From assembly GCA_039815375.1 (NCBI GenBank), contig JBCBZJ010000040.1, positions 1 through 18,990 of the forward strand: 18,990 nt of DNA, given 5' to 3'. Both the position numbers and the translations under genes were made by a program. The notes below the pieces were generated by a model. It was given only the letters and a program-made list of their open reading frames with translations. It was not told where the DNA came from and made no database searches. Shown here piece after piece: positions 9,449 to 9,570 of the stretch (positions are counted from its first letter, which is position 1; every line of letters starts with the position of its first letter). This DNA comes from Verrucomicrobiota bacterium (GTDB lineage Bacteria > Verrucomicrobiota > Verrucomicrobiia > Opitutales > Coraliomargaritaceae).

Positions 9449-9519
9449 GTGTAACCAGGCGGTGGTCTCAATTCCTTTCGCGCTCCGCGCTACAGTCTTG
9501 AGACACCTTCACGTTACGA
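9449..9519 (+). repeat. Terminal attC site (71 bp recurrent type); its R' is formed by the IS3 left IR
   Basis: GTGTAAC 9449-9455; body nearly identical to attC 1079-1149; GTTACGA 9513-9519. Confidence 0.92.
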
Positions 9520-9570
9520 AAACTGGTCCATTTCAAGAGTTAGTCTGTTGTGTTAAAATGACAACAGACC

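Follow-up and report, generated by a model that had tools for sequence, protein, structure and literature searches.

An integron cassette array in an uncultured marine bacterium is joined, at the G|TT crossover of an attC, to an IS3 element that lacks the tip of its left end. We consider it likely, with a probability of roughly 0.6, that the host integrase (IntI) made this junction by recombining the attC with a GTT inside the IS left end, which would have deleted the DNA between the two; this reading comes from sequence comparison. The window, by which we mean the whole stretch of 18,990 nucleotides analysed, is the entire contig C30 of the genome G000, an assembly of 3.56 Mb in 66 contigs, and the sequencing runs that contain it are marine or estuary metagenomes. 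Its features are collected in Table 1.

Table 1. Features of the cassette array, the IS3 element and the right flank (window coordinates).
Feature	Position	Strand	Remark
Integron cassette array, 16 G|TT crossovers including 9513; 5' end is a contig break	1..9513	+	
Last intact cassette, 224-aa ORF (8774-9448) without Pfam match, plus its attC	8764..9513	+	
Junction attC: R'' GTGTAAC 9449-9455, crossover G9513|TT, hybrid R' GTTACGA	9449..9519	+	Bases after the G are IS-derived
IS3 left inverted repeat, remainder, without the 8-bp tip TGGTCGAG	9513..9547	+	Its GTT is the putative attG-type site
IS3 orfA, 89 aa, HTH_Tnp_1	9571..9840	+	
IS3 orfB, 319 aa, rve, intact, identical to L095	9837..10796	+	NF033516, 215.8 bits (cut-off 160)
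Intact IS3 right inverted repeat, ends CA	10763..10804	-	
Rhs-type C-terminal domain without Rhs core; frame open up to the IS end	10805..11219	+	
Two orphan ORFs, 216 and 72 aa	11191..12087	+	Search returned only the self-match
End remnant of another repeated element	12116..12311	+	73-92% matches in G001, G002 and G003
attC remnant without R'', TTT in place of R' GTT	12312..12354	+	
Array-end element: hairpin plus GGGACAAAAA-type repeats	12353..12545	+	Follows the last attC of other arrays in G000
intI-like gene, 3' fragment, 43 aa, at contig end	18862..18990	-	Also at the start of C17

The left-hand partner at the junction has the attributes of an attC, namely R'' (..AAC) and R' (GTT..) cores, a bottom-strand hairpin, a position after a short gene and repetition in one orientation. 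It ranked second in a search with a profile derived from 14 attC sites of the window, itself included, so that the calling profile was built from this genome's own sites. Against the attC at 1079-1143 it shows 57 identities over 65 positions, and in the predicted fold of its bottom strand R'' pairs with the hybrid R' at -13.0 kcal/mol, a value computed without a shuffle control. The sequence-only reading had placed the join at the attC crossover, and this was borne out: the break is G9513|TT, the same crossover as at 15 other cassette boundaries.

The right-hand partner (9513-10804) belongs to the IS3 family by its DDE transposase of IS3 type and its overlapping orfA and orfB. An A7G run at 9827-9834 in orfA is the likely, predicted site of a -1 frameshift, a role known for A6G/A7G from IS2 (PMC3299598, in the part of the paper available). 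Of the expected TG...CA termini, the right end is present and the left tip absent in the window, while both are present in the metagenome contig L095, which is identical to 9513-10805 at 1293 of 1293 positions. Because the termini are complete in this identical copy, that of the window is a truncated IS3 member. Most named relatives of the IS are from Verrucomicrobiota, many of them Opitutales, and on that basis the host probably belongs there too. Its last 119 bp recur at 100% identity at L219:1068-1186 in G529, a genome of another family, which implies recent transfer. No intact copy was found elsewhere in its own genome, only diverged relics; the 18 bp at C2:80101 that match the left end were put down to chance, since they fall within plain coding sequence and have no second inverted-repeat motif.

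When the right end was reverse-complemented and laid against the left end without gaps, 24 of 35 positions were identical over 9513-9547 and 2 of 7 over 9506-9512, so the gap-free alignment described earlier, starting at GTTAC 9513, is present. That description had also put the lost outer segment at 7 bp. The loss itself stands, but the length does not: L095 and contigs from runs X3 and X4, of another study, carry an identical tip of 8 bp, TGGTCGAG, which in L095 precedes the G of 9513 (TGGTCGAG|GTTACG). The missing piece becomes 9 bp if the shared G is assigned to the attC, and the left end is one base longer than the right. A contig from run X2 has 9 unaligned letters at the tip position. 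TG stood at the expected place in 257 of 264 distinct related IS ends (159 loci), the other 7 having a point-changed tip, and none of the 264 was fused to an attC. Of the related cores, 181 start with GTT, and each has G or A immediately before it; the C in which attC sites here end occurred in none. Had intact copies begun naturally at or after 9513, an ordinary insertion beside the attC would have sufficed; they begin 8 bp upstream, and the junction is therefore not an ordinary insertion.

Damage after insertion would be another matter. The IS could have entered in or next to the attC R' box and then lost 8-12 bp of its tip locally, the present right flank being a later rearrangement or a mis-join. 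In L095 (114-184) the identical IS does sit 4 bp after the crossover position of another attC, one similar to that at window 8707-8767, and its flanks are unmatched; to its right lies a gene matching contig C21. With an attC on the left, a C21-like gene on the right and no duplication, L095 has probably been rearranged or put together from two separate insertions. An IS1182-family element also sits in an attC of the window, and the depth of the right flank is about half that of the IS: in run X1, depth and GC were 13.5 and 42% for the last cassette, 17.1 and 51% for the IS, and 8.4 and 42% for the right flank. The X1 assembly graph breaks at 10686, 10717 and 10805, and from the half depth together with the break at 10805, part of the population may carry another right flank. 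Yet the graph branch at 10686 is accounted for by the 119-bp identical fragment in G529, the assembled right flank is an rhs fragment and not a duplication plus cassette, and an attC match was found at only 2 of 162 related loci, adjacent only in L095. Insertion followed by local tip loss is thus very improbable. The same 2 of 162, obtained with a profile trained on this genome, means that the survey could say little about IS copies located within arrays, and attC targeting by the IS group, with one adjacent case (L095), was set aside as unsupported.

No target duplication was found in the window, where the left flank is replaced, or in L095. In relatives, 100 distinct flank pairs gave a 4-bp duplication in 10, a 2-bp match in 11 and neither in 79, many of these pairs coming from metagenome contigs in which flanks may have been mixed up. 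At L055, L072, L105, L106 and L154 relatives are inserted a few bases from tip-like sequences, which is where insertion directed to IS ends would place them.

The junction is real, and no obvious assembly error is apparent. The window is a metagenome contig and other runs hold the intact tip, so a chimera could have been formed at the GTT common to the attC and an intact IS. However, a contig built independently from run X1 covers 9476-10715 with zero differences at a depth of 17.1, including 37 bases left of the junction, and a 3-base overlap cannot join 31-mers or 141-mers; we regard a chimera as exceedingly improbable. X1 is possibly the source run, and its contig hence adds no independent biological support.

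The same interval could instead have been lost without any integrase, by slippage between two short direct repeats: the GTT(A) that follows the attC and the GTTAC within the left end of the IS. Any join at the shared GTT looks identical under slippage. Cassettes and the stretches that follow attC sites begin with GTT and an A-rich run, resembling the IS start; the sequence after the comparable attC on C2 (GTTAGTAAAA, the rhs leader) matches that start at 8 of 10 bases. With the right end point left free, crossovers make up only 15 of 9,512 positions upstream of the junction, which counts against slippage. Given a join at this GTT, they are 15 of 123 upstream GTT triplets, 3 of 31 GTTA and 1 of 9 GTTAC words, about 1 in 10 overall, and a scan of many windows, such as singled out this junction, would pick such coincidences. 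Kilobase deletions on 3-5 bp of homology are rare, and the host genome carries intI genes. Slippage is accordingly unlikely, and the integrase-independent routes combined are rather unlikely; that an integrase made the junction, by one route or the other, we hold with fair confidence.

Beyond the IS, the product of 10805..11219 is 34% identical to residues 37-166 of P0004 (E 7e-23), whose residues 1-35 match TIGR03696 at E 3.9e-6, below cut-off, as an Rhs core ending DLLGM. The frame, open up to the IS end, and this alignment indicate that the IS lay within an rhs gene, directly behind its core, which is absent from the window contig. A word search for longer homologues of the fragment returned none. 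Atlas matches, all <0.9, were set aside, and P0005 and P0006 were rejected as relatives, being repeat-protein noise. The 216-aa ORF that follows is a possible immunity protein, judged by position only. Neither the rhs fragment nor the next ORFs were found in 8 congeneric genomes.

Further right, the segment 12116..12311 is probably an IS right end: three of its matches end at 12311, one reaches 12333 and three stop earlier. The attC remnant after it, a site chosen by eye and not reported by the attC HMM, had an alignment score of 42 against a null of 21.3 +/- 3.1, and a score of 42 was reached by none of 3000 random windows and none of 1000 shuffles. The array-end element has five strong copies, of which two begin 6 bp past an attC (C2 and C5), one follows a degenerate attC (C37), one stands without an attC (C56) and the fifth is that of the window. 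A second GGGTCAAAAAAGGG-type repeat comes after it (12353-12630), and a similar repeat on C17 lies between a tRNA-like gene and an intI 3' end, as at the ends of integrative islands.

An intact analogue of this arrangement lies at C2:58278-72345, flanked by what we take from their translations to be purF and purH. Its order is an attI-like site, three cassettes, an attC and an intact rhs locus with a 1736-aa gene, then a second attI-like site, a cassette, an attC and the same array-end element. The rhs locus between the two small arrays (C2:60007-71200) starts at an attC G|TT and holds ORFs of 261, 812 and 1736 aa plus two more. Rhs cores number 11 in G000.

Because the Rhs gene is cut at the IS, an attC remnant and array-end element lie downstream and C2 holds an intact analogue, the flanks favour a deletion over docking. 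Under docking, IntI would have used the GTT in the left end of the IS as the point at which to insert a circle of many cassettes or to join an array from elsewhere. Insertion by attC x attG is efficient for IntI1-3 (bioRxiv 10.1101/2022.09.11.507474), the 5' end of the array is unassembled so that the reciprocal junction could be hidden, and one rhs core runs off the end of C44. Docking would nevertheless take either a circle carrying at least 16 cassettes or repeated rounds of insertion, and 1.5 kb downstream of the target site an attC remnant and an array-end element would have had to be in place beforehand. An 11-mer search of the assembly for the reciprocal tip-plus-cassette junction gave a single match, the sole TGGTCGAGGTT, at C11:130667, with no cassette-like start after it. 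A 3- or 4-bp duplication plus tip matched 6 times in the assembly, never with a cassette following, and a 4-bp match at C11:249937 lies inside a frame open for at least 600 aa. One of these matches, at C11:192715, looks like the end relic of a related IS. We therefore regard docking as distinctly unlikely: of the two routes that the sequence-only reading had offered, distal deletion gains from the cut Rhs gene, the attC remnant and the end element, and docking, whose reciprocal junction is not in the assembly, is left without support. The attC remnant and array-end element could also belong to a separate decayed array.

What is observed is a junction with an IS that has lost its tip, an Rhs domain cut short, remnants further downstream and intI genes in the genome; from these we infer the enzyme, the deletion and an order of events. 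First, an intact IS would have inserted directly behind the core of an rhs gene located between the cassettes and the array-end element. IntI would then have engaged two sites, the attC through its folded bottom strand and, as double-stranded DNA, the GTT at IS positions 9-11, which would act as an attG-type site. As the attC and GTT are in direct orientation, recombining them would have removed everything in between, from whatever distal cassettes there were through the rhs core and target duplication to the tip of the IS, amounting to several kilobases if a full rhs locus stood there as on C2. What remains would be an attC still able to fold, an IS whose transposase and right end are intact, and a C-terminal Rhs module orphaned from its core. 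The lack of divergence between this IS and intact copies would date the event as recent.

The triplet at IS positions 9-11 fits the GWT consensus of attG sites, a weak test with 51 GWT triplets on the IS top strand. CRGM, which marks IntI1 hotspots and not all attG sites, is absent at +6 to +9 (AAAA, 2 of 4), and by eye the IS site bears no likeness to the attI-like sites of the host. The support comes from one junction, and an undeleted allele was not found in 8 congeneric genomes. The claim that IntI and not the transposase was responsible thus stands as the best reading, though one drawn from a single junction.

IS3 chemistry retains the terminal bases, and the transposase is for that reason an unlikely author. 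An adjacent deletion made by the transposase was rejected, as such a deletion keeps the tip, and so was integration of an IS circle, as the right flank has no tip after a spacer. The truncated IS is likely immobilised, judging by the bases it has lost. In IS2, as far as the available part of PMC3299598 goes, IS3-type transposition follows a two-step pathway in which the left end is only a recipient, and changes to the outer A element left circle formation unreduced. Without its left terminal bases the truncated IS should no longer insert normally by both ends. It may still form circles, because some outer left-end changes in IS2 did not stop circle formation.

Three intI genes in G000 lie above the TIGR02249 cut-off, on C51, C10 and C24; the C51 frame is open for 467 aa, and those of C10 and C24 run to contig ends. 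The C51 gene (51440-52840) and the C10 gene are 95% identical and have an N-terminal extension of about 150 aa before the TIGR02249 match. In the window, the IS is followed by three ORFs, an imuABC-like cluster and then the intI-like 3' end, 9.3 kb downstream of the array. The cluster (12746-18171), between the island-end repeats and the intI fragment, consists of imuA-like, imuB (IMS) and dnaE2-like genes, the last named from a reading of its translation, and an imu-type cluster is missing at the corresponding place on C17.

On its 5' side the array runs off the contig at a repeat, its first 141 bp being common to C5 (at the start) and C58 (at the end). This repeat (window 1-141) takes the place of the attC R'' box in three arrays and coincides with contig breaks, and looks like the end of a multi-copy attC-targeting element. 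The IS1182-family element (3727-5411; NF033551, 394.9 bits) lies at an attC R' box, flanked by an ACGT duplication at 3723-3726 and 5412-5415. Elsewhere, a short repeated element starting with a GATGGACGAACG-like sequence interrupts attC 3' ends at C58:~14400, C40:170549 and C2:10510, and several attC cores at C2:1542-2600 and 8870-9170 read GAT or GATC instead of GTT/AAC. An attI-like sequence ending ..TACT|GTT precedes cassettes in four copies (C2:58278, C2:71225, C11:421038 and C2:22); three internal copies have no adjoining intI match, which suggests that internal attI-like platforms are served in trans.

The reaction that we propose has been described. In attC x attG recombination, the partner of the attC G|TT crossover is a GWT that lies in double-stranded DNA away from att sites, and IntI1 was shown to excise between an attC and further sites close by in the genome, with loss of DNA (Loot et al., bioRxiv 10.1101/2022.09.11.507474). 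The junction is alike in its crossover, its GWT partner and the proposed deletion of host DNA. It differs as a natural event in a marine uncultured host with putative IntI activity, with its GWT in an IS3 inverted repeat, in the missing CRGM and in an outcome that looks like a deletion and not a single-cassette insertion.

Other systems are more distant, and for these we rely on the available parts of the papers. In a class 1 integron, the aadB attC recombined with a secondary site, GTTAAGT, inside blaVEB-1, a laboratory product with one PCR detection (PMC3518468); both events truncate neighbouring DNA at a GTT, but ours is a genomic product and truncates an IS end. The chromosomal integron of Vibrio cholerae likewise has IS3 copies in its array, with homologous recombination between two of them (PMC11023631), whereas here one IS end is cut at an attC crossover. 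Off-target IntI1 inversions between two secondary sites in R388 (PMC10127599) were, like the present junction, attributed through a GTT at the break, with the same shared-base ambiguity, although only that study has an integrase-null control.

The sequence-only reading had seen in the junction a possible route to integrase-less arrays, which is neither shown here nor new. Secondary-site insertion and IS rearrangement have been proposed as origins of CALINs, with a caution about draft assemblies (PMC4889954, available part), and both CALINs and SALINs have been suggested to arise when cassettes insert at attG sites (bioRxiv 10.1101/2022.09.11.507474; PMC4889954, available part). The window resembles a CALIN in having no complete intI and an IS at the array edge, but its array ends at a contig break and three intI genes lie elsewhere in the genome. 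A literature search at title and abstract level, subscription papers being outside its scope, returned no description of an attC fused inside an IS end. Read as an integrase-made deletion, the junction is a natural instance of a known reaction; both IS3 in arrays and a secondary-site origin of CALINs are already in print.

The survey for the same junction that had been suggested brought no recurrence. The strict pattern (C|GTTAC..IR) occurred only in G000 among 401 class-level genomes, a set in which intact ends were not counted. The core pattern of the IS group was found at 123 ends in 21 of 250 order-level genomes, with 0 pyrimidine-prefixed junction patterns in those 21, and viral contigs gave no match to the junction pattern. 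It is highly doubtful that integrases prefer the conserved GTT(AC) located just within each end of these Verrucomicrobiota IS3 elements, which would turn every copy landing in or near an array into a portable attG, although the survey, with 2 of 162 loci near an attC, hardly bears on it. In that case the integrase would clip the IS end, trim or relocate the array there and disarm the invading IS.

Found once, the junction shows no new mechanism and no new route to integrase-less arrays. The evidence for attC x attG deletion is mostly from laboratory assays with IntI1-3, and the junction is a base-exact natural candidate for it in a marine host. It gives a defined substrate pair with which a non-proteobacterial integrase could be tested.
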